Below, in pieces: positions 6,287-30,495 of a stretch of 64,000 bases of DNA (position 1 is the first letter of the stretch; every line of letters begins with the position of its first letter). The position numbers were made by a program, and so were the translations under genes. The stretch is from Dehalococcoidales bacterium (GTDB taxonomy: Bacteria > Chloroflexota > Dehalococcoidia > Dehalococcoidales > UBA2162). Below the pieces are notes generated by a model. The model worked only from the letters and a program-made list of their open reading frames with translations. It had not been told where the DNA came from and made no database searches. The DNA lies in the NCBI GenBank assembly GCA_034416335.1, contig DAOULV010000023.1, forward strand, positions 768-64,767. The letters run 5' to 3'.

Positions 6287-6638
6287 CATTGCACAAGAGA
6301 CCATAGCTAAGCTAGATGAATATCTAAATAGCATCGCTGAAGAAGGAACAAAACGTTTCAGCCCCAATCACATGGCCGAACGGACTGGGCTTGACATTCA
6401 AATTTCTCAAACGATACTTCTCCGAACAGCTCAAATAGGAACAATTCAAACTTACTATGAAATAGAATGTCCTGAAGGTGATAGTGATTTTTTTGTTACG
6501 AGAATAGAAGATGTTGATTGGAATACTGAATGTGTATGTAGAGTGTGTGGCACAGAATATATACCAAATCCTTCTAATATTTGGGTGACGTTTAGTATTT
6601 TAGACCCTCCTTCCCCAAAAGCATTATGCCGCCTGTAA
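6249..6638 (+). CDS. hypothetical wHTH-like / Zn-ribbon-like protein
   Basis: ORF track 129 aa with a GAGGGTG SD before ATG 6249 and a 38-nt overlap with the upstream gene. It has an HTH-like SPNHMAERTGLDIQISQTILLRTAQ and a Cys cluster ECPEG...CVCRVCG. Confidence 0.45.
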   Translation: MYLKQLDKLRDYNIAQETIAKLDEYLNSIAEEGTKRFSPNHMAERTGLDIQISQTILLRTAQIGTIQTYYEIECPEGDSDFFVTRIEDVDWNTECVCRVCGTEYIPNPSNIWVTFSILDPPSPKALCRL

Positions 6639-7240
6639 GTGGTACTCACAAATCAGGTGGCAGCCTACAAGAACTAACTAAAAGACCAGAGTGGATAGAT
6701 TTCATCCCATCTCAGTTGGTGGCACTTGATAGAGATAAATACTCAGAATTACTAGGACGAGTTGAAGAATCACTCCTTTCAGGAACCAATAAAGAAAAAG
6801 GAGATAGTCTAGAAGAACTCGCTGATTTTCTATTAAGCTCAATCAAAGCATTTATTGTCGGGCAAAAAACCAACACATCAACCGGAGAGCTGGATAGATT
6901 CTTGAAAATAAGTAAGATTCCCGGGACATTTTTATGCGACTGGTCATTGTATATTCCCGTAGAATGTAAAAATTGGAATGATCCTGTGGGTGGGGATATT
7001 ATTGACCATCTTTATGCCAAAGCAAGGAATATGGATGCAAATCGAGGAATTTTATTTTCTCGTGAAGGTGTTACAGGCAATATGAGTCATGATGGTTGGA
7101 GACAAATCGTAAACTTATTTCAAAATTCCCGTTATATAACCATTGTTGTGGACATTGATGACCTAAGAAGTATCAACGCTGGAACTTGTCCATTGCATAT
7201 AATAGAGCAATGCCAGGAAAAAGTAATATTAAGCGCATGA
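6626..7240 (+). CDS. Mrr-like restriction endonuclease-domain protein
   Basis: ORF track 204 aa. GDSLEELADFLL...ELDRFL...YIPVECKNW...GILFSREGVT follows the Mrr_cat PD-(D/E)xK layout (D...ExK). It overlaps the upstream gene by 13 nt. Confidence 0.6.
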   Translation: MPPVSGTHKSGGSLQELTKRPEWIDFIPSQLVALDRDKYSELLGRVEESLLSGTNKEKGDSLEELADFLLSSIKAFIVGQKTNTSTGELDRFLKISKIPGTFLCDWSLYIPVECKNWNDPVGGDIIDHLYAKARNMDANRGILFSREGVTGNMSHDGWRQIVNLFQNSRYITIVVDIDDLRSINAGTCPLHIIEQCQEKVILSA

Positions 7241-7283
7241 ATAAGTACTATTTCAAACCTTTCAATTCGGTAATGAGTTATAG

Positions 7284-8192
7284 ATGATGAACGAACTTAA
7301 CAGCTCACATTTAAATATAATCGACACCATTAAGCTCAGGGGAAGAGAATTTACAGATGATGAGTTGAGCACTATTCGTGAAAGTGTGATAAATAACTTT
7401 GACAAAGGTCGTACTTATATATCAAGAGATATTTGTAATACCCTCAATTGGAAACAACCAAATGGTTGGCTAAAAGATAGAGCATGCCGTGACGTGTTAC
7501 TTGAATTAGAAAAAAGAGAAATAATCAAACTTCCACCTCCTTTGGTAGTTAAGAACAACAAAAAATCTAACAAAGGCAATAGTATAAGTTATTTGAAAAA
7601 TTTTGATCTGAATACACCTATATCCGAATTCCCAAATTCTATTGAACTAGAATTTGCAAAAGGTAATATTCAAGAGAAAGTCTGGAATGAACTGGTCAAT
7701 CAATATCATTATTTGGGACATAGCACTACTGTTGGTAGGTGCATTAAGTATCTGATTAGATCTAACGACAGGTTACTAGGGGCACTCTCATTTTCATCTC
7801 CGGCATGGGAACTGGAGACTAGGAATAATATCCTTAACTCAATAGGTATTGAAAATCCAAGAGATTACACAATAAATAATTCTAGATTTCTCATTTTACC
7901 TATAGTGCAAGTAAATAATCTTGCATCACATGTGTTAGCTATAGCAGCAAAAAAGATTGTTAACGATTGGAAGGACTATTATTCCATAATTCCTCTGATT
8001 GCTGAAACTTTCGTTCAACCATCTCGATTCGATGGCACCTGCTATAAGGCAGCCAACTGGATAGAAATTGGTACAACAAAAGGTTATGCTAAAAGAGGAA
8101 GATTTTATCGAAACAGTCAGGAACCCAAGAAGATATTTTTGTATGGTTTAGATAAAAGAATACGAACAAAGTTGCTACAATTAGAGAAATAG
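7284..8192 (+). CDS. DUF4338-domain protein (DruA-like)
   Basis: ORF track 302 aa. QYHYLGHSTTVGRCIKYLIRSNDRLLGALSFSSPAW and ETFVQPSRFDGTCYKAANWIEIGTTKGY match my memory of the DUF4338 signature. Confidence 0.65.
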   Translation: MMNELNSSHLNIIDTIKLRGREFTDDELSTIRESVINNFDKGRTYISRDICNTLNWKQPNGWLKDRACRDVLLELEKREIIKLPPPLVVKNNKKSNKGNSISYLKNFDLNTPISEFPNSIELEFAKGNIQEKVWNELVNQYHYLGHSTTVGRCIKYLIRSNDRLLGALSFSSPAWELETRNNILNSIGIENPRDYTINNSRFLILPIVQVNNLASHVLAIAAKKIVNDWKDYYSIIPLIAETFVQPSRFDGTCYKAANWIEIGTTKGYAKRGRFYRNSQEPKKIFLYGLDKRIRTKLLQLEK

Positions 8193-8200
8193 GCATTATA

Positions 8201-9256
8201 ATGAATGCACGAGATACCTTAAAGAATGCGCGAGAATTTATTCGTAAACAAGGCGGGCAAATTGCACCGCTCCCTATAACTGAAGAGGAATTGGATCCTT
8301 CAGCTCAAGATGATCAGTCACTTGAAACTTTTTCCTTAGAACCTACAAATTGCCAGAATGTTGAGTATTCATATCCAGATGACTGTGGAAACAGCGAATT
8401 CTCCTTTTTTGAAGATGGTAAACAGAGAACTCTACATATAGGATTTATAGAAACCGAATATGGAGATCATACTGCTATAATTCCGGTACATTTTGTAGTT
8501 GTTGCCGCAGTAATCTTACAACGGCAAGAGCGTGAATTAAGCCTTTGGGATCAGCCAGTGATCCGAAGTGGAATATTGGTCGAAAAGTCACTTGTTCCGA
8601 ATACACATGCTCTTAATGAATTTGAAAATCTCGGATTAGAAATAATCGATACAGAAGGTCTTGGAGGAGACTACTACGTATTGAGGAATAAAGCTTTACA
8701 AAAAGCAAAATCTATGAGATTAGAAGTCGAGGATGAATTAATACGTCGATGGCGTACAAGCGATGATGCCCAAAACGGCTTTTTAATAGTAGATGGGACG
8801 TTGATGAATTTTCGCGACGAGGAGAATGTTAGGCATTGTATTGGTGTCAGTAAATCATTCGGTACTAGATATTTCACCACAAGTGAGCACAATCGTATAT
8901 TACAAATGCAAGAATTTCAAAGATCTTGGACATTTCGTTTCCACCATCCTGGAGATGCACTAAATTTGGGAGTACGTGACCGAGTAAGTTGGTACCTAAG
9001 ACTTAGAACTAAAACTAACGCCGATCCTGAGTTTGGTCTTATCCGAGTAGAGATAAGTCACTCTTATCATAACCAGGCAACCGATTATGCTAATCGATTC
9101 TCTAAATCATTAATATCAGAAAGGCTACCTACTTCCTATCCGGATAGTCGGTGGGATAAACTTTTATATCCTATTCAAGAGTGTGAGAGTTATTTGTCAA
9201 GTGTAATACCTTCAATTCAAACCATCGCTTCCAGTATGAAAGGAGCGCTGTCATGA
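8201..9256 (+). CDS. NurA-like nuclease
   Basis: ORF track 351 aa. NurA-type motifs are FEDGKQR, RLEVEDE, FLIVDGTL and GVSKSF. It sits directly upstream of, and overlaps, a HerA-like ATPase. Confidence 0.55.
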   Translation: MNARDTLKNAREFIRKQGGQIAPLPITEEELDPSAQDDQSLETFSLEPTNCQNVEYSYPDDCGNSEFSFFEDGKQRTLHIGFIETEYGDHTAIIPVHFVVVAAVILQRQERELSLWDQPVIRSGILVEKSLVPNTHALNEFENLGLEIIDTEGLGGDYYVLRNKALQKAKSMRLEVEDELIRRWRTSDDAQNGFLIVDGTLMNFRDEENVRHCIGVSKSFGTRYFTTSEHNRILQMQEFQRSWTFRFHHPGDALNLGVRDRVSWYLRLRTKTNADPEFGLIRVEISHSYHNQATDYANRFSKSLISERLPTSYPDSRWDKLLYPIQECESYLSSVIPSIQTIASSMKGALS

Positions 9257-11052
9257 CATATCAGTCGGTACCACAGGAAGAATCGCCTGAAATGCAAAAT
9301 GAAGAGTTTAGCCTAAGTAATTTTCTGAATATTAGCTACGGAGTCATTGGTAGAACTGCATCGACGAGATTTGAACCCAACACTTCCGGTAAATTCCACT
9401 TTTGGTTATCGAAACTTGCGCCTAATCTTCCAGCTGATGATGATCATGAAGTTCCTACTCCTAACGAAACTCAAGAAGTTGGTAGAGACCGGGAAGAAGT
9501 GGCGCCAATAGAAATAGGAAATATCGTGGCTGCATATTCAGATGATGAGGTAGATATTACATTTGGTACAGTAACAGAAATGAGATCATATAGCGATGTG
9601 GAGAGTTTCATTTCTGATTATTTAAGTCATGATTTTGGCGATGCCACTATTCAAGTTCCGACTGATATTACTGAAGTAATTGTTGTCACTTGTGCTGTAA
9701 TGCGTAATATATCACTTAAGACCAAGCCCGTGGGGAGATCTCGAGTATATTTCCCGAGTACATTAGGGATTCAATTTTCCTACGGAATCGTTGATGAAAA
9801 TGGTGAAATAACCTTTAGAGGTGCGCCTATACCCTTTGGAGTATTTGAAAACGGTGATGGCACTATTGCTCCAATCAGTGTAGACGAAAATTTCTTACTC
9901 GGACCGGAAGGCGCTCATCTTAATGTTTCTGGTATTTCAGGCTTAGCATCAAAAACTTCAGCAATTGAATTTACGATCAACTCTCTTCTCACTCACACTC
10001 GTAAGAGACTGGCTGTAGTGATGTTCAATGTTAAAAGTCAAGATTTACTTTACATCGATCAGGTGAATCCGAGACTCGCGGAGGAAGAATGGTCACAATG
10101 GGCATATGACATTTTAGGTGTACCTCAAGAACCATTTGCTAATGCAAGTTTCTATGCACCTGCAGATCCTAGAAATGCACCAGATGGGACACAGAGTTCC
10201 AGAAGTCTTGAAGTACAGCCCTTCGAATGGAATTTACCTATGATTTATCAGCAAATTCCAACTCTATTTGACCAGATGGATTGGGATGATAGGATGGAAG
10301 GAGTCTGGTTTACAATACAGGGCGATATAGAAAGTGGCCAAATTTTATCTTACGGGCAAATGGTTAATTCGGTTCAAAATCTTATCAATACAGCAACAAA
10401 TAATCAGCGACAATGGGTAAGAGGCAACCATATTTCTACTTGGCAAAAAATGTTATCACACTTAAGGCGATTTCCACAATCTTATCAAGGATTGATAACA
10501 CCTGCTGGTACGGGTAGGGACATACCATGGAATGAGTTACAGGAAAATAGTGTTTGGATCATCGACATTGAAATGCTCGCTGATCGAGGTCAAAGGCTGG
10601 TATTTGGTCGTTCAGTGTATGCTATTAGCGAGATGTTAGAATCTGATGATAGCAACCTAGACGCAGTTGTAGTATTTGTTGACGAATTAAACAAATTTGC
10701 TCCTTCAGGAAATGTTAGAACTCCACTGAAATCTAGGTTAATTGATATCACAGCAAGAGGACGAAGCATAGGAATGGTTCTTTTCGGTGCGGAACAATTT
10801 GTTTCATCAGTAGACAGAGAAATCGTCGAAAATAGTTCAACGTATCTATTCGGACACACTGAAACAAATGAACTACGTAGCCCTACATTTAGTGCGTTGA
10901 GTGATGAAGTAAAAACAAAATTGACGATGCTTCCTCAAGGACAACTGTTAATTAAATTTGCAAAATTCCCACAGCCAATATTCTTGAAATTCCCATTTCC
11001 CGCATGTTGTCCTGGTGATCAATATAGTTCAGAAGACGTGGGAGATCAGTAG
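9253..11052 (+). CDS. HerA/FtsK-superfamily (DUF87-like) ATPase
   Basis: ORF track 599 aa with an ATGA overlap with the NurA-like gene. It has a HAS-barrel-like N-terminus, a deviant Walker A SGISGLASKTS (nt 9931-9960), a Walker B VVVFVDE (nt 10665-10686) and ARGRSIGMVLFGAEQ. Confidence 0.65.
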   Translation: MTYQSVPQEESPEMQNEEFSLSNFLNISYGVIGRTASTRFEPNTSGKFHFWLSKLAPNLPADDDHEVPTPNETQEVGRDREEVAPIEIGNIVAAYSDDEVDITFGTVTEMRSYSDVESFISDYLSHDFGDATIQVPTDITEVIVVTCAVMRNISLKTKPVGRSRVYFPSTLGIQFSYGIVDENGEITFRGAPIPFGVFENGDGTIAPISVDENFLLGPEGAHLNVSGISGLASKTSAIEFTINSLLTHTRKRLAVVMFNVKSQDLLYIDQVNPRLAEEEWSQWAYDILGVPQEPFANASFYAPADPRNAPDGTQSSRSLEVQPFEWNLPMIYQQIPTLFDQMDWDDRMEGVWFTIQGDIESGQILSYGQMVNSVQNLINTATNNQRQWVRGNHISTWQKMLSHLRRFPQSYQGLITPAGTGRDIPWNELQENSVWIIDIEMLADRGQRLVFGRSVYAISEMLESDDSNLDAVVVFVDELNKFAPSGNVRTPLKSRLIDITARGRSIGMVLFGAEQFVSSVDREIVENSSTYLFGHTETNELRSPTFSALSDEVKTKLTMLPQGQLLIKFAKFPQPIFLKFPFPACCPGDQYSSEDVGDQ

Positions 11053-16411: not shown

Positions 16412-16454
16412 CTCTTAATCAGACGGTTGGAGGTTCGAGTCCTCCGCGGCTCAG
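16412..16454 (+). repeat. tRNA-Lys(CUU) 3'-half fragment, att-like direct repeat copy 2
   Basis: Same 43-nt sequence as 12243-12285 with one mismatch, in the anticodon stem. No 5' half lies upstream. Confidence 0.75.
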
Positions 16455-16496
16455 CATGAAGCTGGTAAGCCTGGTTGAAAATATAAGGCGACTGGT

Positions 16497-16949
16497 TCAG
16501 GTAACATTCCCTATAAACGGGTTCTCGGCGCGTTTCTCTATTTGTAGACAAATCGATGTTTCGATTCTGATAATCCCGTCTATCTTACCTATCTCACTTT
16601 CCAGCAAGTTGTAAAGTTCTTCGGTCGAACTAACCCACCAGACGGTCCTGACATTAAACAGTCCACTTGTTGCACCTACCCAGGCAGCATTCGGATATTT
16701 ACTCAGCGCCTTCAGGACCGATTTTATTTTTTCGTGAGAAACCTCAAGTGAAATGAACGCCACGACGGGTAACCCGACTTTTTCAAGGTTTGGGACCGCT
16801 CTGATGTGTATTATCCCCTGCTCAAGCAGGTTTTTCATTCTGCGTCTTATCGTGGAAGAGCTGGTGTTTAGTTGCTTGGCTAGTGAGGTACTGTTGACAT
16901 TAGCGTCGTGCATCAGTAGTTCTATTATTTGAGTATCCAGTAAATCCAT
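16497..16949 (-). CDS. Lrp/AsnC-family transcriptional regulator
   Basis: ORF track 16497..16976. ATG 16949 has a GAGAGG SD. There is an HTH (TSLAKQLNTSSSTIRRRMKNLLEQGII) plus a C-terminal RAM-like domain. Confidence 0.8.
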   Translation of the reverse strand: MDLLDTQIIELLMHDANVNSTSLAKQLNTSSSTIRRRMKNLLEQGIIHIRAVPNLEKVGLPVVAFISLEVSHEKIKSVLKALSKYPNAAWVGATSGLFNVRTVWWVSSTEELYNLLESEIGKIDGIIRIETSICLQIEKRAENPFIGNVT

Positions 16950-17132
16950 TGTAATACCTCTCAGGCAATTTAGCACAATATTTACGATTATACAAGCAAT
17001 ATAGTCAAATTACCTGACAATCCATCAATTATAAATCATGCCTGCGCGACATATGGGAACCCGACATCGAAAGCATTATTAGACCGGACCCAATTATATG
17101 TGTATAACCGGGGTCCTGTAGATATGCCGGGA

Positions 17133-18329
17133 CTAATATTTCGTACTCATCAGAACATGATAATGATTCGTTTCCGACAGGCAGCAGACATTCCCGAAGA
17201 CATTTCCCATAAGCCGGTCGTATCGAAGGAACTTACCGGCCACCACAACCAGTCTTCCGTCAGGTTCCAGAATCTCCCGGGCGTGAACGACGAGGGGACC
17301 GGCAATATCGAATCTCTCAAAACCTGTATGAAAAGGCGGGTTGGTCAGGATAATATCATATCGTTTTCCGTTCAAACCGCTGAGGAGGTCGCTTACGATT
17401 ACCTCCGCACCGGTGACATCATTCAAGATGATGTTTTCCCCGACAGACGCTGTCGACGGCAGGTCGACATCCGCAAGGTCGACGTGCCCCGCGCCTTTCC
17501 TGGCAGCGAGGAGACCGATAATTCCATATCCGCAGCCTAAATCAAGAACACTCGAACCCGGAGAGACATCCATTACCTCCAGAAGAAGCCTGGTCCCTTC
17601 ATCGATTTCATCGTATGAAAAGACACCGGGCAGGCTTCGTAAGAGGAAAGTTTCCCCGCAAACTTCGGCTTGGAACTGGCGCCACGTTCCCGGTAAGATA
17701 CCCGGTTCATCCGCCCAGCCGGTATCGCGTGGTATTGGGTCTTCCTTAGCAGCCACGCTTACCCGTCCGCCTCTTTTATAGGCAAGTGTCACGGAGTTCC
17801 CGAACAGCGATTTCATATCCGAAACCGCCGATTTGATTCCTTCCCTATTAGCCCCTGCAAGGTATAAACGACCGCCGTTTTTTAAAGCCGAGAATGATTC
17901 TACCAGCCATCTCCTTGTGAATTCTCTCCCTCGCGGCAATACCATAACGACAATATCGAAAGAATCGGCATATACCGGCAGCACGGAGAGGTCCGGATGA
18001 ATACGCGCATTGGATACGCCGTTTAACCTCAGGGTCCTTTCCGCCATCGCAAGTGCCACGGAGTTCGTATCCACCAGAAGAACGTCGGCGCCGGGAGCGG
18101 CGCGCGCCAGTGTCACACCAAGTGCGCCGTGACCGCAGCCCAGCAGAAGAATCCGTGAACCGGCGGATACTTCAACCGTATCCGCCAGCAAAGCCACAGC
18201 CGGTGTAACGGTATTCCAATATGAAATACCCGGCTTGGAGATAAAACGGACGTTCTGGTTACGCAGGGTTACGGTAAATTCTCTGGTTTCATAGTATTCA
18301 AGATATGAAGGTGCTTTATTCGACATCAC
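17133..18329 (-). CDS. RsmC/RlmG-like rRNA (guanine-N2) methyltransferase with two MTase lobes
   Basis: ORF track 398 aa. Motifs are LLLGCGHGALG, VLDLGCGYGIIGL and ILTNPPFH. Confidence 0.7.
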   Translation of the reverse strand: MMSNKAPSYLEYYETREFTVTLRNQNVRFISKPGISYWNTVTPAVALLADTVEVSAGSRILLLGCGHGALGVTLARAAPGADVLLVDTNSVALAMAERTLRLNGVSNARIHPDLSVLPVYADSFDIVVMVLPRGREFTRRWLVESFSALKNGGRLYLAGANREGIKSAVSDMKSLFGNSVTLAYKRGGRVSVAAKEDPIPRDTGWADEPGILPGTWRQFQAEVCGETFLLRSLPGVFSYDEIDEGTRLLLEVMDVSPGSSVLDLGCGYGIIGLLAARKGAGHVDLADVDLPSTASVGENIILNDVTGAEVIVSDLLSGLNGKRYDIILTNPPFHTGFERFDIAGPLVVHAREILEPDGRLVVVAGKFLRYDRLMGNVFGNVCCLSETNHYHVLMSTKY

Positions 18330-18470
18330 AAGTTTCCGGTACGTGGTGTAATTTCAGGAGGCGTGTCCTGGCTGAGAGTATAAACACTCTATTATTATAG
18401 GGTATATCCGCGAGCCGTCAATCATCCTCCTCGCGCCTGAAAGCAGCATGACCGTGTCTGAATGAAGTAA

Positions 18471-18507
18471 AAATAAGAGAGGCGGCTTTTACGCTACCTC
18501 TCTTTTA
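18471..18507 (-). terminator. hairpin terminator downstream of the HesB-like gene
   Basis: AGAGAGG (18476-18482) pairs with CCTCTCT (18497-18503), flanked by A/T runs on both sides. Confidence 0.4.
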
Positions 18508-18533
18508 TCCTTATCTGAGTCTATTAATAAAGT

Positions 18534-18818
18534 CTAACAGTTACCGTTCCCGCCTCTGAGTACGAAGCCTTCGGCGTCCGATCGTTTTACATAATCTATC
18601 ACCGTCCCCTTTACGTAAGGCTGTATTGGTTCGGTGACAAGTACGTCGATACCGTTAACCTTTACCGGTAGTTCATCCTTATCCGGCTCATCCAGAGCCA
18701 TCCCGATACTGGGACATCCTCATCCGATCCCCTGTATAAACAGCCTGAGGTGTTTCCCGGCGTTCTGATCAAGTATTTCCTGGATTTTATCCCTGGCCAC
18801 ATCAGTTATTTTTACCAT
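18534..18818 (-). CDS. HesB/IscA-like selenoprotein (in-frame UGA = Sec, codon 33)
   Basis: Not in the ORF track. GGAGGG SD, ATG 18818, TGA 18720-18722, TAG 18534-18536. Translation: MVKITDVARDKIQEILDQNAGKHLRLFIQGIG-U-GCPSIGMALDEPDKDELPVKVNGIDVLV...GNGNC. A GUCCC-AGUAUC-GGGAU hairpin lies just after the UGA. Confidence 0.65.
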
Positions 18819-18883
18819 CCTCACAAACTCCCTCCAGTTTATAGGTATATTGTACAGTTGCCGGAATAAGGGTGTATGTGACG

Positions 18884-19636
18884 TTAGTCGCCGCCGCGGA
18901 ATTTCCTGAGAGCCGATTCCGCTCCGTGTTTAAGGAATGCATCCGAATCATCTACGGTGTTAAGTGTAAAACCTTTTTCCTTCGCCCACTGTATGTTATC
19001 CGACAAAGCAAATATACCCGCAGGTTTCCCGGCTTTATCGGCAGCATCAAGGACCGTATCGAATGCCGCCAGGTATTCCGGATTATCCCAGTTCGGAGGG
19101 ATGTTTCCGTAGCTGAGACAGAGATCGTTCGGCCCTATATAGCAGGCATCGATTCCATCGACGGCCAGAATTTCATCGATGTTCTTTACCGCATCTTTCG
19201 TTTCAATCTGGACAATAACCATTATTTCATTATCTGCCGTTTGCATATAATCGGGATCCAGCATTTTCGCTCTTCTCGGGCCGTAGCCCCTCAGCCCGGC
19301 GGGTGGATATCTGCAGGCACGCACTGCGTACTCGGCTTCTTCCCTGTTATTCACCCACGGGACCAGAATACCGTGCGCGCCGATGTCCAGGATACGCTTG
19401 ATAACAACCATATCATTCCACTGGGGACGGACTATCGGAGTGCAGTCAGTGCCGTTCATCGCCTGCATCATCACCGTCATCGTTTCCAGACCGGTAACCG
19501 CATGTTCGCCGTCAATAAGCAGCCAGTCGAAGCCGATACGCGACAGCATCTCCGTTACATCGGGATGGGGCAGGGTAACGAAAGTCCCGATTACCTCATC
19601 ACCTCGCTTGAGTTTTTCCTTAAGTACGTTTTTCAC
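18884..19636 (-). CDS. HpcH/HpaI-family aldolase
   Basis: ORF track 250 aa. LLIDGEHA and the overall pattern are typical of 2-keto-3-deoxy-acid aldolases. Confidence 0.8.
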   Translation of the reverse strand: MKNVLKEKLKRGDEVIGTFVTLPHPDVTEMLSRIGFDWLLIDGEHAVTGLETMTVMMQAMNGTDCTPIVRPQWNDMVVIKRILDIGAHGILVPWVNNREEAEYAVRACRYPPAGLRGYGPRRAKMLDPDYMQTADNEIMVIVQIETKDAVKNIDEILAVDGIDACYIGPNDLCLSYGNIPPNWDNPEYLAAFDTVLDAADKAGKPAGIFALSDNIQWAKEKGFTLNTVDDSDAFLKHGAESALRKFRGGD

Positions 19637-19795
19637 TTAATCGCTCCTGATATCTATTGCTTGAGACAGTATTTTACTTTGAACAAGTTACTCTCATCAG
19701 TATATAGAGAAGCGTCACTCAAATCAAAGAGCATCTTTAATGGTGAGTAGGTTATAATAAATACTATTACATTTAGTGAAAGGGGTTGGTATTTA

Positions 19796-20728
19796 GTGGA
19801 TAAAACTACTCTTGGCAGAACAGGATTGACGGTGACCAAAATGGGTCTGGGCTGCGGTGGTCCGAGCCGCGTCGGAAAAGGAACCGGAAAGGAAGAAGCC
19901 GAATCGATTAAGGTTGTCAGGACGGCCTGCGAAGCCGGAATCAACATAATCGATACCGCTGAAATCTACGGAACGGAGGAAATCGTGGGAAAAGCTGTCA
20001 GCGGTCTGGACCGCTCTTCACTGGTCCTCTGCACCAAGAAGACGCCGACTGAAGGTCTTACCGGGGAACAGGTAAGGGAAAGCCTCGAAAACAGCCTGAG
20101 ACGTCTTGGCACCGATTACGTTGACGTTTATTATCTCCATGGAGTAAGGCTGAACCAGTATGAATATCTTTACAGTGAAATAGTACCTGTCCTCGAAGAA
20201 CTCCGCGGAGAGGGAAAACTGCGCTTTATCGGAATCTCAGAAATGTTTAATGCTGATACCCGTCATGAGATGCTGCAGCGTGCCCTGAAGGATGACGTCT
20301 GGGACGTAATGATGGTAGGGTTCAATATCCTCAACCAGTGTGCCCGTGAATATGTATTCCCGGAAGCGAAGAGGAAGAATATCGGCATCACGATAATGTT
20401 CGCCGTCCGCCTGGCACTGAGCAGACCGGAGCGCCTGAAAGAGGTTATGACTGAACTCATCGAGAAAAAGCAGGTAGACCCTTCGGAGTTCGATGTTAAT
20501 GACCCGCTTGGTTTTCTTGTCCACGAGGGAGGCGCGGTGAGTATTCCGGACGCCGCCTACCGTTTCTGCCATTATGAAGAAGGGCCCGACGTAATACTTT
20601 CAGGAACAGGTAATCCGGCCCATCTGGTGGCAAATTTGGAGTCGTTCAATCGCCCACCGTTCCCCGAAGAAGATGCCGAGAAACTCAGGTATATATTCAG
20701 GAAAGTGGATTCCGTTACCAGCCAGTAG
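19796..20728 (+). CDS. aldo/keto reductase
   Basis: ORF track 310 aa with a GTG start. LGRTGLTVTKMGLGC...IDTAEIYG...YVDVYYLHG. Confidence 0.8.
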   Translation: MDKTTLGRTGLTVTKMGLGCGGPSRVGKGTGKEEAESIKVVRTACEAGINIIDTAEIYGTEEIVGKAVSGLDRSSLVLCTKKTPTEGLTGEQVRESLENSLRRLGTDYVDVYYLHGVRLNQYEYLYSEIVPVLEELRGEGKLRFIGISEMFNADTRHEMLQRALKDDVWDVMMVGFNILNQCAREYVFPEAKRKNIGITIMFAVRLALSRPERLKEVMTELIEKKQVDPSEFDVNDPLGFLVHEGGAVSIPDAAYRFCHYEEGPDVILSGTGNPAHLVANLESFNRPPFPEEDAEKLRYIFRKVDSVTSQ

Positions 20729-20752
20729 CAACATTTTGCAGCAGAGTCAGAT

Positions 20753-22102
20753 ATGAAAACGATACGCGAAGAAGCCAGAGAAATAAAGGTTTTCAGCGAG
20801 ACCGAGGTCGTAGTTGTCGGTGGTGGTCCCGCCGGCATTGCCGCGGCGGTAGCTTCGGCACGGACCGGTGCCAGGACTACTCTCGTCGAGAGATACGGCC
20901 ATCTTGGCGGTATGTCCACCGGCGGCCTGGTTATCCTTATTCCGTTTATGAGCAGCGGGACAAGCGAAAGACAGATAGCCGGAATTTGCCAGGAAATAAT
21001 CGACCGGCTGGACGCCATCGGCGGTGCGGTACACCCCGCTGACGAAGAAGTGGGAGCGACCGACGAAAAAACCCTCCGGTACTGGAGAAGGCGGGGCACC
21101 TTTTCGATGGCACCGGGCGATTCGGTCAGGTACGGCGCCCTGGTAGATCCGGAGAAACTCAAGCGCGTTCTGAATGATATGGTCGAGGAAGCCGGTGTAA
21201 AGCTGCTGCTTCATTCGTGGGGAAGCAGAGCCGTGGTGGAAGATGAAGCTGTAAAAGGCGTTATCTTCGAAAGTAAATCGGGACGGCAGACGGTACTGGC
21301 ACGGGTCACGATAGATACTACTGGCGACGGCGATATTTTCGCTTCCGCCGGAGCGGAATTCGACGGCACTATCGACCGCAGCCTGAGGTCCTCGAACCTT
21401 GCCCTGGTATGGCGTATAGCCAACGTGGACAGCGAGAGATATCTGGACTTCCAGGAGCAGGAACGGGAAAAACACAGCGCATTAATGAAAGAGTTGACCG
21501 CAAAAGGCGGTTTTAATACCTACTGGAGAAGCGCTCACGACGATATTCTGTGGTGCAACAACTGGTTTTCGGACCTGAGTGCTATCGACGTGGAAGACCT
21601 GACGTACGTCGAAATCAGCGCCCGTAAAGCGATGCTGACATCGCACAAATTCCTCAGGGAACGGGTGCCCGGTTTCGAGAACAGCTTTATCATGGACACG
21701 GCTTCACAGACGGGGACGCGCGGGAGCCGCCGGCTTATCGGCGAATACATCGTCTCCTGGGATGACGTAATCTCGGGGACGGTTCATCCTGACTCGATAG
21801 CCCTGCTGCCGCACCTGCATCACAACCCTGAAAAAGGCTATCCTCTGGTAACGATGCCTTATCGGGCGCTGGTGCCGCGGAAAATCGAGAACCTGCTGGC
21901 AGCCGGACGGTGCTTCTCGTCGGATCCCGCAGCCAACAACGTGCTTAACTGGATCCAGCAGTGTATTCCTATGGGACAGGCGGCAGGTACCGCCGCCGCC
22001 CTGGCGGCCAAATCCGGAGTCACTCCCGGGAAGGTAGATGTACCGACCTTACAGGCAAACCTTAAAAAGCAGGGGGTAATTTTACCGGAAGGGATTTATT
22101 AG
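20753..22102 (+). CDS. FAD-dependent oxidoreductase
   Basis: ORF track 449 aa. The dinucleotide-binding motif is VVVVGGGPAGIAAAVASARTGARTTLVE. Confidence 0.75.
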   Translation: MKTIREEAREIKVFSETEVVVVGGGPAGIAAAVASARTGARTTLVERYGHLGGMSTGGLVILIPFMSSGTSERQIAGICQEIIDRLDAIGGAVHPADEEVGATDEKTLRYWRRRGTFSMAPGDSVRYGALVDPEKLKRVLNDMVEEAGVKLLLHSWGSRAVVEDEAVKGVIFESKSGRQTVLARVTIDTTGDGDIFASAGAEFDGTIDRSLRSSNLALVWRIANVDSERYLDFQEQEREKHSALMKELTAKGGFNTYWRSAHDDILWCNNWFSDLSAIDVEDLTYVEISARKAMLTSHKFLRERVPGFENSFIMDTASQTGTRGSRRLIGEYIVSWDDVISGTVHPDSIALLPHLHHNPEKGYPLVTMPYRALVPRKIENLLAAGRCFSSDPAANNVLNWIQQCIPMGQAAGTAAALAAKSGVTPGKVDVPTLQANLKKQGVILPEGIY

Positions 22103-22149
22103 CTTTCTGGATTGTTTGAAAGAAAGCTGATTCTTACTTGCTTTTCCTT

Positions 22150-22521
22150 TCAAACAATCTTACTACCCTGTTCCCGAAGGTATTTTTCGACGAACGAATT
22201 CAATGTGCCGTCAGGATAAATGACCCGGTTACTCATGAGAGGCTTAATCTTACTCTCCAGAGCTGCCACAGAGAGAGAAGTTCCGACTTTCTCCTTAAGG
22301 TCTTTTAAATCATACTCGGTATTTTCCCATAACCATACCCAGGACTCGACCTCTGATTCACCAGGAGTACCTTTGAGTCTCTTTACAGGCTTAGTATCCA
22401 GACTTGTCCAAGCAATCGATATCTTTATCAGGTCTGGCTCATCTTTGAGAAATAAAACGATTTCCGGCTTCTCATTCTGTTTGAACCAGTTCAGTTTCTC
22501 AGTGTATAAATCTTCAGTCAT
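22150..22521 (-). CDS. conserved small protein of unknown function (paralogue of 12584..12985)
   Basis: ORF track 22150..22533. ATG 22521 is chosen by homology. An alternative GTG 22533 abuts the rSAM stop. Confidence 0.55.
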   Translation of the reverse strand: MTEDLYTEKLNWFKQNEKPEIVLFLKDEPDLIKISIAWTSLDTKPVKRLKGTPGESEVESWVWLWENTEYDLKDLKEKVGTSLSVAALESKIKPLMSNRVIYPDGTLNSFVEKYLREQGSKIV

Positions 22522-22533
22522 TTCCTGATACAC

Positions 22534-23757
22534 TTATAATACGCAATTACATAGACCCAGGTTTTTCTCAATTCCCAATTTTGACCATAGCTGATGTTCC
22601 TCCAGACAGAGTGCAACCTCAAGGTCAGGACATATTTTTCGTGCCGCCTGGATAATAGTGGAGTATATCCTTTCTCTCAATTCTGGAGAATATCGGGCTC
22701 TACCATCCCCCGATTTTCTCAAAGTATTGTTAATATGATCCGATATGGAGTTATGCAAGCCTAACTTATGCTCCATAAGTTTACGCGCACCTTGATAAAT
22801 ACATATACCACCAAGAGTAAGTCGCTGAACGGGAATCTCTTTTAGGAGTCGAACCGTAAATGCAGTATATTTTTCTTCCCATCCATCAACAGGAATAACA
22901 GGCATCATAACTACACGGACCGGGTAACCGGCAGAAGCCACACTACGCATGGCTTCAAGGCGTTCCTCTATTCCAGGAACATTCTCTTCGTACATTTCAC
23001 ATACTTCGGGTGGGTTAACACTCCAGGACAGAATCGTGTTCCCATGGTGTTTAGTATCCAATAATCTATTAACGTTGGTACTTTTAGTTAAGAGTATCAA
23101 TCGAGCCTGGGGATGTTCCGCAAAAAAAGGAACCAAGATACTTGAATAAGCCGTCAGGGAATCAAGAGCTAAAGGGTCTTGGAGCTTGCCGATATAAAAT
23201 GGAGTGGGTTTTCCTATATTACAAGCGGTATTGTTTATTGTATTAATCATCTCTGGAAGGTTTACGTATATCTTAACTGTAGGAGAAAATCTGACGCCCT
23301 GAGTCCCAGCGAGGTAACAGTATTTGCAACCGAACGGGCAAAAACCATACGGAGAAAAATGCCAGTAGTTCGGGCAGGTATTCCCTTCTTCCCGGCTAAA
23401 CCGGACGGCGCTCTTAAGTTCTCCGAAAACAAGTGTCTTTTTACCTGCCTGATGTAAAGCAAGAGTTTCTCTCTCATCCAGAATTATCCGGTTATGAGGG
23501 GTGTCAGGACATTTTACTGTTTCAGTTCCTGGATAAAGGCTGCATATGCGTTCTACAAATCTGTGGCGTTCCGGTGTAGAGACGCTTCCCCTGGCCAGAA
23601 AAATCCTAGATATTTCCAGGTGTTCAGGACGAGTCGGCTGATAATCAATCGGTAGACCGATTCTTTGTTGCGTATTATCAAACAAACCAAGTTGTCTAGA
23701 TTTTCCACCCATCCGTTTCCTCATTATTAACTGGTAATATGAATCGCTTTCTTTCAA
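22534..23757 (-). CDS. radical SAM protein, spore-photoproduct-lyase (SPL)-like family
   Basis: ORF track 407 aa. Motifs are FCPFGCKYCYLAG (CxxxCxxC), LILLTKS and ILSWSVNPPEV...AGYPVRVVMMPVIP. Confidence 0.75.
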   Translation of the reverse strand: MKESDSYYQLIMRKRMGGKSRQLGLFDNTQQRIGLPIDYQPTRPEHLEISRIFLARGSVSTPERHRFVERICSLYPGTETVKCPDTPHNRIILDERETLALHQAGKKTLVFGELKSAVRFSREEGNTCPNYWHFSPYGFCPFGCKYCYLAGTQGVRFSPTVKIYVNLPEMINTINNTACNIGKPTPFYIGKLQDPLALDSLTAYSSILVPFFAEHPQARLILLTKSTNVNRLLDTKHHGNTILSWSVNPPEVCEMYEENVPGIEERLEAMRSVASAGYPVRVVMMPVIPVDGWEEKYTAFTVRLLKEIPVQRLTLGGICIYQGARKLMEHKLGLHNSISDHINNTLRKSGDGRARYSPELRERIYSTIIQAARKICPDLEVALCLEEHQLWSKLGIEKNLGLCNCVL

Positions 23758-23838
23758 CGAATTTTATATCCACCACAGGTAACCGCCTTATAGGAACAGT
23801 TTACTCTCACTGAAATTTAATGGTATTACATTTATATA

Positions 23839-23852
23839 CGAACATATGTACT
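23839..23852. promoter_or_regulatory. LexA/SOS-box-like palindrome (imperfect)
   Basis: CGAACATATGTACT has a GAAC-N4-GTAC core with one core mismatch. It lies 82 nt upstream of the rSAM ATG 23757, next to a TATATAAAT -10-like element on the minus strand. Confidence 0.3.
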
Positions 23853-23897
23853 ACTTACTGATTTTATCATCAGAACGCTAGAGGAGCAAGACTATTG

Positions 23898-23906
23898 TGC
23901 TATAAT
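23898..23906 (+). promoter_or_regulatory. extended -10 element upstream of aor
   Basis: TGcTATAAT lies 65 nt upstream of ATG 23971. No good -35 was seen. Confidence 0.35.
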
Positions 23907-23970
23907 AGTGCCGGTTTTATCAGGACTACCACAATGAAGGAATTACATCCAGTGCCGAAAGGAGAGAACA

Positions 23971-25788
23971 ATGCCGAACGGATATATGGGGAAATTGCTA
24001 TTCGTTAACCTTTCTACCGGTGAAATCGACGAAGAAACGCCGGATGAAAGTTTGTATCGCGACTTCATAGGCGGTTACGGAATCGGTGCCAGGGTATTGT
24101 ACAGCCGCCAGAAGGGCGGAGTCGACCCGCTCGGACCCGATAATACGCTGGGATTTATCACCGGTCCCCTCACCGGTACCCGGGCAACCTTTGCCGGAAG
24201 ATACTGCGTGGTAACCAAATCACCGTTAACCGGTGGCTGGGGAGACTCGAATTCCGGCGGGCATTTCGGTCCCAATATCAAATTCGCCGGCTATGATGCC
24301 GTTTTTATAAACGGAATTTCGGAAAAGCCTGTCTACCTGCTGCTGGATGACGGTAAAGTCGAGATAAAGGACGCCGGTCACCTGTGGGGAAAAGATACGT
24401 TCGCTGTCGAAGACACACTAAAGGAAGAGTATGGAAACGACCTGGAGAGTGTCAGCATCGGTCCTTCGGGCGAAAAGCTGTCGCTCATTTCCTGCATTAT
24501 CACCCGCAGAGGAGCCGCCGCGGGACGTTCCGGGGTAGGTGCGGTTATGGGATCGAAGAACCTCAAGGCAGTGGCGGCACGGGGAAAGATGGAGGTCCCG
24601 GTAAGGGACGCCGAACTGCTGAAAAAACTGAGAGACGAACACCTGGCGGCAATGCGGGGCGGTACCGGGACAAATGAGACAATCGAAGGATTTCACAAAT
24701 ACGGCACATCCAGTGTCGCCGCCTTCTTCGCCCATGGCGGTAATTCGCCCGTAAAAAACTGGGGAGGTATCGGTATCAACGAATTGCCCGATGTATCGGG
24801 GCTTACCGGTGACGCGGCAACTGCCAACATAGAAAGGCGAACCGGCTGCTGGGGATGTCCGGTCGCCTGTGAAGGCAGGCTGAAAGAGGGAGAAGGCGAA
24901 TACAGGTACCCCGCCGGAACACGCCGGGTTGAATACGAGACCCAGGCGGCTTTCGGCACGATGTGCCTGAATACCAATACCGAGTCTATTAATATGGCCA
25001 ACCACCTGTGCAACTACTACGGCATCGATACGATTTCCGCCGGCAGTACTATTGCCTTTGCCATGGAGTGCTACGAGAAAGGTATTATTACAAAAGCGGA
25101 CACCGGGGGTATAGAACTCACCTGGGGAAACCACCGGGCAATTATAGAAATGCTGGAGAAAATGGCAAAGAGAGAGGGATTCGGCGACATCCTTGCCGAC
25201 GGTGTTAAAACTGCCGCGGAGAAAATCGGCAAAGGCTCCGAAGAATTCGCCATACACGTCGGCGGACAGGAACCCGGTATGCACGACCCCAAAGTCCCCG
25301 CCGGCCCCGAAAGCACCTCCGGAGCACGTTACCAGATGGACGCTACCCCCGGAAGGCATACCCAGATGAATTTCGGTCCCGCCAGCTTCGGCCATCACCT
25401 GTCTAATGCCAGCGGTTTCTGTATTTTCAGCGACCTCGTAGGAGGAAACGCGGCAGGCTATATTACCGGCTTTATGCGTGCCATAACCGACTGGGACCGC
25501 ACCGAAGAAGAACTGTTAAAGTGCGGTGAGAGAATTGTAAATATGCGTCATGCCTTCAACCTGCGTGAAGGGATAAATCCCCTGCTGGACTATAAGTTAC
25601 CTCCCAGGATGACGGGCAACCCGCCGTTCAAGGACGGTCCGCTTGCCGGCGTAACGGTTGATATCGACGAACAGATAAAAGGGAACCTGAAAGAGCTTGA
25701 CTGGGACCTGAAAACGACCAGACCCAGCCGGGAAAAACTGCTCGAACTGGGCTTAAACGACGTAGCGAATGAACTGTGGCCGGAGTAG
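23971..25788 (+). CDS. aor: aldehyde:ferredoxin oxidoreductase (tungsten/molybdopterin AOR family)
   Basis: ORF track 605 aa. The N-terminus GKLLFVNLSTGEIDEE...YGIGARVLY is typical, and the length fits the AOR family. Confidence 0.85.
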   Translation: MPNGYMGKLLFVNLSTGEIDEETPDESLYRDFIGGYGIGARVLYSRQKGGVDPLGPDNTLGFITGPLTGTRATFAGRYCVVTKSPLTGGWGDSNSGGHFGPNIKFAGYDAVFINGISEKPVYLLLDDGKVEIKDAGHLWGKDTFAVEDTLKEEYGNDLESVSIGPSGEKLSLISCIITRRGAAAGRSGVGAVMGSKNLKAVAARGKMEVPVRDAELLKKLRDEHLAAMRGGTGTNETIEGFHKYGTSSVAAFFAHGGNSPVKNWGGIGINELPDVSGLTGDAATANIERRTGCWGCPVACEGRLKEGEGEYRYPAGTRRVEYETQAAFGTMCLNTNTESINMANHLCNYYGIDTISAGSTIAFAMECYEKGIITKADTGGIELTWGNHRAIIEMLEKMAKREGFGDILADGVKTAAEKIGKGSEEFAIHVGGQEPGMHDPKVPAGPESTSGARYQMDATPGRHTQMNFGPASFGHHLSNASGFCIFSDLVGGNAAGYITGFMRAITDWDRTEEELLKCGERIVNMRHAFNLREGINPLLDYKLPPRMTGNPPFKDGPLAGVTVDIDEQIKGNLKELDWDLKTTRPSREKLLELGLNDVANELWPE

Positions 25789-25827
25789 CTAAATTCTGAG
25801 AAAGCAGATGATATTACCGCATATCAG

Positions 25828-25991
25828 CCCAGTGCCAATAACGCTTGATTTTTCGGAATAGCATACTTTTGTTTCCTCTCCCTTGAGGGGAGAGGATTAA
25901 AGCCACCCTCATCCTGACCTTCCCCCGTCAAGGGGGAAGAGACCAGTTGTAGAACTGGCTTCAGACAGTTATTAATGTTACAACGTACTAG
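25828..25991 (+). mobile_element. MITE-like element, family 1, copy A (middle arm deleted)
   Basis: It shares ...cgcttgatttttcgg...cctctcccttgaggggagagg...ccttcccccgtcaagggggaag...cttcagacagttattaatgttacaacgtactag with copies at 26971, 39172, 51337 and 53777. Confidence 0.65.
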
Positions 25992-28483: not shown

Positions 28484-29200
28484 TTGAATCCTTATTCATT
28501 TATAGTATCTATTCTGGTTTATATCGCCATATTCGTCCTTGTCGTCGGGCTTATCTACCGGATATATAAATGGATTAAGATTCCCAGAAGTAAATTAAGC
28601 CTGGGACTATACCCCAAGCCAAAAAGCGGAGCAGGAAGGCTGCTCAAGCTTGGAAAAGATACATTCCTGTTTCCCCAGGTATATGAGGTAGACCGCTGGA
28701 TGTGGATATTCGTGGTATGCCTTCACCTGACACTGGTATTCGCTTTCGTCGGCCACCTGAGGTTAATCCAGGAATTCACACCCCTGGTCAACGCCCTCGG
28801 TGATGAAGGCATGAACCAGTTTGCTTTGATTAGCGGAGGTATAGTAGGAATCGTTATGATGCTCTCCGCTTTTTACTTGCTGATGAGAAGATTCAAGTCT
28901 CCTTACAAGGATATCTCAACTCCGGAGGATTACATTCTACTCGTCCTGCTGCTTATCATAATACTGCTGGGTAACCACCTTCGGTTCTTCGGCAGCGTAC
29001 ACGTTGCCGACTACCGGGAATATGTGCAAAGTCTGCTGATGTTCAAACCGTCTTTTAACGCGGAACTGGCTGAATCGGGGACGAAGTGGGTACTCACCAC
29101 CCATATATTATTCGCTTCTATCCTTGCGATTTACTTCCCGTTCAGTAAACTGGTGCACTTCGTAGGTTCATTCGCGGTCAATCTCGTCAGGAGTGATTAA
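28484..29200 (+). CDS. NarI/DsrM/HdrE-like membrane cytochrome b subunit
   Basis: ORF track 238 aa with multiple TM helices containing conserved His. It is paired with an HdrD/DsrK-like protein. Confidence 0.55.
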   Translation: MNPYSFIVSILVYIAIFVLVVGLIYRIYKWIKIPRSKLSLGLYPKPKSGAGRLLKLGKDTFLFPQVYEVDRWMWIFVVCLHLTLVFAFVGHLRLIQEFTPLVNALGDEGMNQFALISGGIVGIVMMLSAFYLLMRRFKSPYKDISTPEDYILLVLLLIIILLGNHLRFFGSVHVADYREYVQSLLMFKPSFNAELAESGTKWVLTTHILFASILAIYFPFSKLVHFVGSFAVNLVRSD

Positions 29201-30495
29201 TGGTGGATATTGATACTGAAAATAAACTGGTAGGCATACTTGAAAAAGGTATAAACCGGCAGCTCCAATATTACCTGGATGTCTGTACCAGATGTTCCAT
29301 ATGCAAAGACGGCTGTCATCAGTACGTAGCTACGAAAGATATCAGGTATCTTCCGGCTTACCGTGCCGAACTGATACGCCGTATTTTCAAGAAATATCTA
29401 ACTGCCGAAGGTAAATTCATTCCCTCCCTCGGTGAAGCGACCGGGATAGACGACCGTCTTCTCGATGACCTGTTTATATCGACTTACGCCTGCACGGGAT
29501 GCCGGCGCTGTATGTATTACTGTCCGTTTTCGATAGACACCACCTGGGTGCTTTCCCTGGCGAAAGCCATACTCATCGCAGCCGGAAAAGCTTCGACGAT
29601 ATTGACGGAACTTGCCGACGCCTCCATTATGAAAGGGGAAAGTATAGACCTCTTTAAAGACATTATTATAGACACCCTGAAAGATACCGAAAAACAATTA
29701 CAGGAAATAGTAAAAGACCCGAATGCCGGAATTCCCATCGATAAAGAAGGGGCCGATATCCTTTATGCGGCGTTGTCCGGTGTACACAGTATATTACCAG
29801 CGGCGGTAATATTTCACCAGGCGAAAGCAGACTGGACTCTTTCGATGTTCGAAGCGGCAAATTACGGCTATTTCCTGGGCGATGCCGGGAAAGCCGTAAA
29901 AATCGCCGACCGTATAGTCGACGAAGCAAAAAGACTAAATGTCAAAGAGGTGGTGATAACCGAGTGCGGGCATGCTTACCGGGTAATGAAGATTCTGTAT
30001 GAATACTGGACAAAAGAGGAGCTTCCCTTCAAGGTTACCAGTATACTGGAAGTTATTTCACGGTACTTAAAAGAAGGGAAGATAAAGGTAGATACCGGGA
30101 AAATTAAGGAAATCATCACCTATCACGATCCCTGCCAGTTCGGAAGGAATGCAGGTTTCTTTGACCTGCCGAGAGAGATCATCGGTAATGTCACCAGCAA
30201 TTTCAGAGAACTTGAGCCTAACCGCGAAAAGAACTGGTGCTGCGGCGGTGGCGGCGGGCTTGTTGCCCAGCCCGACTTTGACGAACTCAGACTGGAAACG
30301 GGCAGAAAGAAAGCAGAACAGATACGGAGCAGTAAAGCGAAAACGGTCATCAGTCCCTGTGAAAACTGCCGGCTGCAGCTGGCTGACCTTAATAAAAAAT
30401 ATGAACTTGATATTACCACAAGTTCGATGATGGACTTTGTTGTTAATGCGATGATATTCGATTCACCGGAACCCGGGGAGGAAAAAGACGATTAA
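29200..30495 (+). CDS. HdrD/DsrK-like Fe-S protein with CCG domains
   Basis: ORF track 431 aa. Motifs are CTRCSICKDGC, CTGCRRCMYYCP and NWCCGGGGG...PCENC. Confidence 0.75.
   Translation: MVDIDTENKLVGILEKGINRQLQYYLDVCTRCSICKDGCHQYVATKDIRYLPAYRAELIRRIFKKYLTAEGKFIPSLGEATGIDDRLLDDLFISTYACTGCRRCMYYCPFSIDTTWVLSLAKAILIAAGKASTILTELADASIMKGESIDLFKDIIIDTLKDTEKQLQEIVKDPNAGIPIDKEGADILYAALSGVHSILPAAVIFHQAKADWTLSMFEAANYGYFLGDAGKAVKIADRIVDEAKRLNVKEVVITECGHAYRVMKILYEYWTKEELPFKVTSILEVISRYLKEGKIKVDTGKIKEIITYHDPCQFGRNAGFFDLPREIIGNVTSNFRELEPNREKNWCCGGGGGLVAQPDFDELRLETGRKKAEQIRSSKAKTVISPCENCRLQLADLNKKYELDITTSSMMDFVVNAMIFDSPEPGEEKDD

Follow-up and report, generated by a model that had tools for sequence, protein, structure and literature searches.

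In a 64-kb stretch of DNA from a Dehalococcoidales bacterium (64,000 nucleotides of contig DAOULV010000023.1, hereafter the window), the minus strand carries a 94-codon reading frame, at 18534-18818, that is interrupted once, by an in-frame UGA. Does this UGA terminate a small peptide, does it mark a gene that has been lost, or is it read as selenocysteine (Sec)? An original prediction, made from the nucleotide sequence, proposed the last possibility, namely an unannotated selenoprotein gene of the HesB/IscA type. The present analysis upholds that proposal: 81 of 82 homologous sequences, spread over several phyla, have the same UGA, and a form with cysteine in its place exists. We consider, with a probability of about 0.88, that this is a genuine HesB-like selenoprotein gene, in which the UGA encodes Sec and is read via a hairpin located a short distance downstream (hairpin 2, see below).

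A single frame cut in two by gene callers

On the minus strand, sequence and translation give a single frame from ATG 18818 to TAG 18536-18534, with one internal TGA, at 18722-18720, which is the proposed codon for Sec33. The translation of the 94-codon frame is MVKITDVARDKIQEILDQNAGKHLRLFIQGIG*GCPSIGMALDEPDKDELPVKVNGIDVLVTEPIQPYVKGTVIDYVKRSDAEGFVLRGGNGNC (tail GCPSIGMALDEP...GNGNC), where the asterisk stands for the TGA. Two of its cysteines are of particular concern here: Cys35 (TGT, 18714-18716, minus strand), which gives the motif U-G-C-P, and the C-terminal Cys94 (TGT, 18537-18539, minus strand). A Shine-Dalgarno-like GGAGGG can be read from the sequence at 18830-18835 (minus strand), 11 nt 5' of the ATG. 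A GTG at 18824, in the same frame, could serve as an alternative start; ATG 18818 is favoured because homologues begin MV(K/Q)ITD. The Shine-Dalgarno sequence, start, length, stop, TGA and product sequence all prove to be exactly as the original prediction gave them.

The same prediction held that the list of open reading frames (ORFs) had missed the gene. Indeed, this mechanical list contains the 55-residue tail alone (18534-18701). The Logan assembly of run SRR14802572 matches the window over 9,472 bp (window 16425-25896) with no difference, and the gene calls made on it at this locus are one of 32 and one of 55 amino acids. The NCBI and Logan entry for the gene (P0003) is likewise the 55-residue fragment. 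Thus, this HesB-like gene of Dehalococcoidales has so far been on record as a 55-residue fragment, and is a 94-residue gene cut in two by gene callers at the UGA.

The UGA is conserved among homologues

In all protein searches U was replaced by C. Full-length relatives were retrieved (47-71% identical), along with tails of 52-58 amino acids that start G-M-A-L-D-E-P. Six of the seven full-length protein matches have a tryptophan at the Sec position and the seventh, P0004, is a Cys form. The tryptophan is an artefact of gene calling under genetic code 4, because the true TGA stop is also read as W in P0002 and in P0005-P0007. The DNA encoding P0001 (locus L002) has a plain TGA at the Sec codon. 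For the complete coding sequence, full-length homologues show 59-72% identity.

In a scan that took one genome from each species, 425 relatives were confirmed; the best 80 of these were kept and inspected. These best 80 belong to Dehalococcoidia (at most 61% identity), Desulfuromonadales/Geobacteraceae, Bacillaceae (Neobacillus, Peribacillus, Cytobacillus and others) and Deferribacteres, and include single metagenome-assembled genomes (MAGs) of Spirochaetaceae, Bacteroidaceae and Myxococcota. All 80 loci have an in-frame stop (79 TGA, 1 TAA) within the sequence G-*-G-G-P...G-(L/M)-A-L-D-E-P. Together with the window and L002, they make up the set of 82 sequences to which the counts below refer; here the Sec codon is TGA in 81 sequences and TAA in one (L071). 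That the same TGA occurs in 81 of 82 sequences rules out both a nonsense mutation private to the window and an error of assembly. Neither this conservation nor the Pfam match described below can be put down to chance. The original prediction stood or fell with the relatedness of the two halves of the protein, and the homologues show protein conservation on both flanks of the TGA.

The TAA of L071 (Bacillus sp. V3-13) lies at 3094-3096, and a close relative, L076, has TGA; L071 has probably been inactivated or misread in sequencing. Just one Cys form was found (L003, 765-1049, encoding P0004); it stands outside the 82-sequence set and has TGT at the Sec codon, so that Sec in one protein is paired with Cys in another at this position. 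L003 retains the full GGCTCTGGATGAGCC hairpin, which is a remnant Sec insertion sequence (SECIS), a sign that Sec gave way to Cys recently.

The residues that follow Sec vary within narrow limits. Among the 81 TGA or TAA sequences other than the window, the motif is UGGP in 59, UGQP in 15, UGKP in 3, UGSP in 2, UNGP in 1 and USGP in 1. UxGP is thus found in 61 of 81 homologues, the remainder having UG[Q/K/S]P, and the U-G-C-P of the window departs from UxGP. The window protein alone has a Cys two residues after Sec, where the 81 others have U-x-[G/Q/K/S]-P. A recurrence of U-G-C-P was sought among close relatives in metagenome contigs; since the one locus found there, 48% identical, has U-G-G-P, U-G-C-P stays a single observation.

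The proposed selenocysteine occupies the place of a conserved loop cysteine

The Pfam domain Fe-S_biosyn (PF01521) matches residues 2-92 and spans the TGA (E = 2.6e-8; 34.5 bits versus a gathering score of 26.3). The protein can be aligned with structures from the PDB, namely HI1723 (2apn), Aq_1857 (1nwb), E. coli IscA (1s98, 1r94) and SufA (2d2a); in the alignments with 2apn, 1nwb and 1s98, residue 33 falls on the conserved loop Cys (GGGCSG, GGCSG and SGCSG, respectively). Sec therefore coincides with the Cys conserved in the HesB/IscA domain, and the length of the protein (94 amino acids) lies within the range of about 90-100 residues. Both the domain match and the structural alignment bear out the IscA/HesB layout, with Sec in the glycine-rich loop, that had been proposed for the product.

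A-type carriers have three ligand cysteines, one in the loop and two in a C-terminal C-x-C; in E. coli IscA these are Cys35, Cys99 and Cys101. Cys35 of E. coli IscA is the first conserved ligand Cys, whose position is taken by Sec33. The three-Cys set is altered in the window protein: Sec stands in for the loop Cys, the C-terminus (GGNGNC) has the single Cys94 as the counterpart of the C-terminal ligands, and Cys35 of the window protein is an extra cysteine. The C-terminal Cys is invariant in alignment A1. Of the 81 homologues, 80 have one Cys or more among their final two residues, and the exception is a locus that ends before its stop codon.

A conserved hairpin within the A-L-D-E-P codons

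Two hairpins can be drawn on the minus strand behind the UGA. Hairpin 1 (GUCCC-AGUAUC-GGGAU, 18700-18715, -6.2 kcal/mol) is the one that the original prediction had put forward, and it is discussed with the alternative readings. Hairpin 2 (GGCUC-UGGAU-GAGCC, 18684-18700, core 18699-18685) has a predicted energy of -9.1 kcal/mol (z = -3.3). Its stem pairs 18699-18695 with 18689-18685, its loop, UGGAU, occupies 18694-18690, and U18700 and G18684 form a closing pair. It sits in the codons for M-A-L-D-E-P.

The alignment of the UGA-hairpin region of the 82 sequences (A2) has no gaps, and the synonymous sites within hairpin 2 are nearly frozen: Ala is encoded by GCU in 79 of 81 sequences, Leu by CUG in 82 of 82, Asp by GAU in 75 of 82 and Glu by GAG in 81 of 81. 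Equally conserved residues outside the hairpin use three to six codons. Thus, the Arg at codon -8 is encoded by all six, the commonest accounting for 26 of 77, and the Gly at +1 is split 33/26/12/9. Hairpin 2 is paired in 93.8% of cells across the 82 sequences and compensatory changes are found within it. Pair 24-38 is GC in 72 sequences, GU in 6 and AU in 3; pair 25-37 is GC in 80 and AU in 1; pair 22-40 is CG in 29 and UA in 27. For instance, the members with A-L-D-E-L have changed Pro CCN to Leu CUA together with Leu UUG to UUA. The pairing and covariation of hairpin 2 exceed those of all 500 shuffles and of every slid control, and hairpin 2 is the sole helix of the RNAalifold consensus. 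The constraint on this segment is thus exerted at the RNA level.

The published model of the bacterial SECIS (bSECIS) has a loop of 3-9 nt, a stem of 4-16 bp, a G in the first two loop positions, a UGA-loop spacing of 16-37 nt and a minimum free energy of -7.5 kcal/mol or lower (PMC13188914). With its 5-nt loop, its 5-6 bp, its 25-nt spacing and its -9.1 kcal/mol, hairpin 2 fits this model on all four constraints, and its loop has a G at position 2, followed by another G. We hold with high confidence that hairpin 2 would direct Sec insertion at this gene.

Two further UGA-containing genes in the window

The window contains a second kind of gene with an in-frame TGA. Two tandem paralogues of about 585 amino acids, related to UGSC, lie on the plus strand at 49100-50860 and 51613-53367. 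Each has one in-frame TGA (49382-49384, ...ICW*SGAVWRQLPY; 51889-51891, ...VCW*HNAVRRQLPY), located at the same aligned position (C-W-U) and with conserved protein sequence on both sides. The N-terminal Pfam domain UGSC (PF24696) spans the TGA in both, with 23.9 and 28.9 bits respectively against a gathering score of 25; the C-terminal portion of about 480 amino acids has no Pfam match. Behind the UGA both genes have the hairpin AAGGC-AGUU-GCCUU, its loop starting 19 nt from that codon. The TGA, the hairpin and the split into 94 and 480 amino acids recur in the Dehalococcoidales record CP070832.1 (2.17 Mb; L085) and in a metagenome contig of the ENA (L086) whose gene product is also encoded on a TARA contig. 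The best 120 database homologues of the protein are all called from after the TGA only. From these features, the UGSC-like genes look like a systematically truncated selenoprotein family, and the two copies in the window lend good indirect support to the decoding of Sec by this organism. BSepDB lists Dehalococcoidia MAGs that have 46-49 selenoproteins (PMC13326102).

Evidence against a selenoprotein and alternative readings

Several results weigh against a Sec-encoding HesB-like gene. The window protein does not reach the curated cut-off of either of the two NCBIfam models for selenoproteins of HesB type: the best model, the selenoprotein-associated NF038090 (IscA_HesB_Se), gives 48.2 bits for a cut-off of 85, and TIGR01911 (HesB_rel_seleno) gives 26.1 bits for a cut-off of 66.35. 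Changing Cys35 to Gly in silico lifts these scores to just 52.1 and 30.1, respectively. Eight of nine relatives tested, from Dehalococcoidia, Bacillaceae and Deferribacteres and of Geobacter type, are also under the NCBIfam cut-offs, and L055 alone passes, with NF038090. The protein lacks the C-terminal C-G-C that is canonical for A-type carriers, and because of this a role in Fe-S metabolism is drawn by analogy only. Rfam gave no match to hairpin 2, whether the whole window was scanned at the gathering score or the vicinity of the gene at E <= 10. No conserved neighbourhood ties the window copy to Fe-S assembly, and isc, suf and nif genes are not adjacent to it. Finally, no selA, selB, selD or tRNA-Sec gene is present in the 64-kb window. 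Pfam scans and precomputed domains revealed no SelA, SelB or SelD domain among the approximately 45 of its ORFs that were scanned, no tRNA or tmRNA was found in it, and Rfam gave nothing relevant there at the gathering score. Since the genes of the Sec machinery were not seen in the window, SelB binding and the actual insertion of Sec are inferred.

These objections have to be set beside what the competing readings would require. The current calls, which split the gene into pieces of 32 and 55 amino acids, are what one would expect of a pseudogene, a Cys-type hesB/iscA gene hit by a nonsense mutation that left nothing functional past 32 residues, and the TAA at the Sec site of L071 shows that inactivation does happen. 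Such a history is, however, hard to reconcile with a TGA shared by nearly the whole set of sequences across several phyla, with the conservation of the protein downstream of it, with a hairpin behind the TGA that is held at synonymous sites, and with an independent assembly of identical sequence. We therefore reject it, as the least credible of the readings considered. Nor do we retain the view, scarcely more credible, that the locus encodes two small proteins as annotated, a 32-residue peptide and a 55-residue protein initiated at ATG 18701. This ATG (Met40) does follow the TGA, and the 55-residue ORF is listed by NCBI, JGI and ENA for many homologues. It is not a conserved start, however, many homologues having Leu at the position of Met40 (G-L-A-L-D-E-P); no Shine-Dalgarno sequence precedes it, and the Pfam domain and the PDB alignments require both halves of the protein.

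If the frame is read through as a whole, the UGA might still be decoded as something other than Sec: near-cognate or reassigned decoding (code 4 or 25) could give Trp, Cys or Gly, or the site could be leaky after loss of the machinery. The W carried by several database homologues at the Sec position and the absence of a visible Sec machinery gene from the window speak for such a reading. However, the W comes from code 4 gene callers and the DNA of L002 has a plain TGA; in addition, every in-frame TGA is a single one at a conserved site with a hairpin behind it, and the HesB site is Cys-equivalent. Readthrough of this sort seems to us very improbable. A global reassignment of UGA was considered and rejected, since TGA ends ordinary genes of the window, such as those for a permease (61603-62553) and an AsnC-type regulator (16497-16976).

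The last alternative concerns the RNA element and not the protein. Hairpin 1 could be the functional SECIS in place of hairpin 2, or the two could form one bipartite element. Its loop, AGUAUC, has a G at position 2 followed by a U, and many of the GC-richer homologues are predicted to form a similar hairpin, CCCC/GGGG; moreover, in E. coli fdhF the SECIS helix starts right after the UGA. Nevertheless, hairpin 1 fails two of the bSECIS constraints, its UGA-loop spacing being 9 nt and its energy, -6.2 kcal/mol, lying above -7.5 kcal/mol. It is paired in 71.6% of cells and unpaired in about 28%, shows no real covariation, does not appear in the RNAalifold consensus and is absent in Bacillaceae, where the Pro and Gly codons are CCA and GGA. 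A SECIS function for hairpin 1 is thus improbable, if less so than the readings set out above. It is probably a by-product of the CCC codon for Pro and the GGG codon for Gly, or else no more than an accessory lower element. The original prediction was right in that the hairpin exists, just 3' of the UGA; the conserved element, by contrast, is hairpin 2.

A model for decoding and for the role of the protein

In the proposed Sec-encoding reading, translation would start at ATG 18818 and the UGA at codon 33 would be read as selenocysteine. Hairpin 2, whose loop starts 25 nt after the UGA within the A-L-D-E-P codons, would act as a bacterial SECIS by recruiting the complex SelB.GTP.Sec-tRNA(Sec) to the ribosome. 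Translation would continue to the TAG at 18536-18534 and transcription would end at a hairpin located at 18504-18475.

This hairpin (AAGAGAGGU...GCCUCUCUU), followed by AUUUUUA, resembles an intrinsic terminator and the whole element covers 18469-18504 on the minus strand. The 74-nt region that contains it folds with -19.8 kcal/mol (z = -3.3), and one of 200 shuffles folds equally well. The presence of a terminator hairpin 3' of the gene had been part of the original prediction. A simple terminator scan reported nothing 3' of the gene; the scan allows loops of 3-8 nt and missed the hairpin because, in the predicted fold, the terminal loop and a 2-bp inner stem together make up 12 nt.

In the protein, Sec33 would replace the first of the conserved Cys ligands found in IscA-type proteins, and the second ligand set would be reduced to Cys94. 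Sec33 and Cys94, with Cys35 joining through the U-G-C motif, might then form a selenolate/thiolate site able to bind and hand over an Fe-S cluster, iron or another thiophilic ligand, or to cycle through a selenenyl-sulfide. The position of Cys35, two residues past Sec, could allow such a selenenyl-sulfide. By analogy with A-type carriers, we propose with moderate-to-low confidence a metal- or metalloid-binding or redox site composed of Sec33, Cys94 and possibly Cys35. Our confidence in any specific biochemical role suggested by such analogies is much lower than our confidence in a Sec-encoding gene. In M. maripaludis, disruption of the HesB-like gene reportedly did not impair nitrogen fixation, a result cited as an unpublished observation (PMC11097638).

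Genomic context

The HesB-like gene is flanked by genes for an HpcH/HpaI-type aldolase and an RsmC-like tandem methyltransferase. Clustering of the neighbourhoods of the 80 loci showed that none of them shares these two neighbours, so that the context offers no clue to the function of this copy. Elsewhere in the window, 29 kb from the HesB-like gene, a gene resembling cysteine desulfurases of the SufS family (447 aa; TIGR01979 307 bits, below the cut-off) lies ahead of a weak NifU/IscU-like gene (135 aa), both within 47108-48892 on the minus strand. This pair lies directly upstream of the UGSC-like genes, on the opposite strand.

The Sec-type HesB genes of Bacillaceae sit in arsenic-resistance (ars) clusters. 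Their neighbours, as identified with Pfam, are ArsD, ArsA, an ArsR-type HTH_5 protein, LMWPc, the ArsP_1 permease, Glyoxalase and DSPc; the loci concerned are L030, L033, L036, L042, L054, L056-L058, L060-L062, L065, L066, L069-L072, L076 and others. The setting of these members suggests a possible link of the clade with metalloids.

Other features of the window

A stretch of the plus strand at 2039-11052 resembles a defence island. It encodes a Type ISP restriction-modification enzyme (1044 aa; Type_ISP_C, N6_Mtase), a DruA-like protein (7284-8192) and several ORFs with no Pfam match (5366-6286, 6626-7240, 8201-9256 and 9253-11052). Two paralogues of 417 amino acids, 335 nt apart, are found on the same strand at 42740-43993 and 44329-45582, with a URO-D-type domain on the C-terminal half only. 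At 28484-30495, also on the plus strand, a membrane protein similar to the gamma subunit of nitrate reductase (238 aa) directly precedes a 431-aa protein that has CCG and 4Fe-4S dicluster domains; this pair resembles an HdrD/DsrMK-type redox module.

Significance and relation to known systems

Taken alone, the window gene is an annotation correction, which adds one more HesB-like selenoprotein. The lineage would also carry further truncated selenoprotein genes, represented by the 94-aa plus 480-aa UGSC-like fusion. The systematic truncation at the UGA in annotations of the clade is probably due to the fact that the curated NCBIfam models miss most of the clade members tested. The nearly invariant UGA-N20-GGCUCUGGAUGAGCC would offer a simple and specific search key with which members of the clade could be recovered, and the contrast between ars-operon and free-standing members could be a starting point for work on the biochemical role of HesB-like selenoproteins.

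One may ask whether the G-U-G-G-P...ALDEP clade is a distinct, largely unannotated subfamily of selenoproteins. The 425 relatives confirmed, with an in-frame stop at the Sec codon in all 80 loci inspected, fit this idea. So does the 15-nt SECIS core, nearly identical across at least five phyla; such identity implies that SelB is unusually strict about the sequence it recognises, or else that horizontal transfer has taken place repeatedly. If there were such a subfamily, the ars-operon setting and the U-G-C motif would fit the handling of thiophilic metalloids or a selenenyl-sulfide redox function, and not Fe-S assembly. We regard a separate subfamily as rather unlikely; the window gene is a further, ordinary member of the known family of HesB/IscA-like selenoproteins.

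With IscA, SufA and ErpA (PF01521; PDB 1s98, 2d2a, 2apn), the window protein shares a full-length domain match, its Sec falling at the first cluster-ligand Cys. It differs from them by having Sec for Cys, by lacking their C-terminal C-G-C and by not being encoded beside isc, suf or nif genes.

In terms of the RNA element, hairpin 2 of the window agrees with the bSECIS consensus model in loop, stem, position of the G, spacing and energy. bSECIS elements usually have little sequence similarity to one another, whereas the hairpin of the clade to which the window gene belongs, GGCUCUGGAUGAGCC, is nearly invariant across phyla.

In the ars1 operon of Bacillus sp. CDB3, arsRYCDAT-orf7-orf8, orf7 was described as HesB-like; selenocysteine is unmentioned in the passages of that article considered here (PMC4562236). 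The Bacillaceae homologues found here sit in the same kind of cluster as CDB3 orf7, whereas the window gene lies outside any ars cluster.

The HesB-like selenoprotein family has been known since 2004-2006, and it is to this family that the window gene is closest. Eleven members were counted in 2006, with two Sec-to-Cys conversions (PMC1794560); the family is listed with TIGR01911 and the motif UxGP (PMC13188914), and 75Se labelling has been reported for the M. maripaludis member (PMC11097638). Compared with it, the window protein falls below the NCBIfam cut-offs, has U-G-C-P in place of UxGP and ends with a single C-terminal Cys. It resembles the HesB-like selenoproteins of Geobacter sulfurreducens, Desulfitobacterium hafniense and M. 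maripaludis (MMJJ_08070) in its IscA/HesB fold and its size of about 95 amino acids. As in the rest of the family, a single Sec stands for the first conserved Cys in the glycine-rich loop, and, as in its bacterial members, the putative SECIS lies inside the coding sequence. The parallel extends to the Cys-type relatives: the HesB-like protein of D. hafniense in which Cys replaces Sec was reported to retain a remnant SECIS (PMC1794560), as L003 does here.

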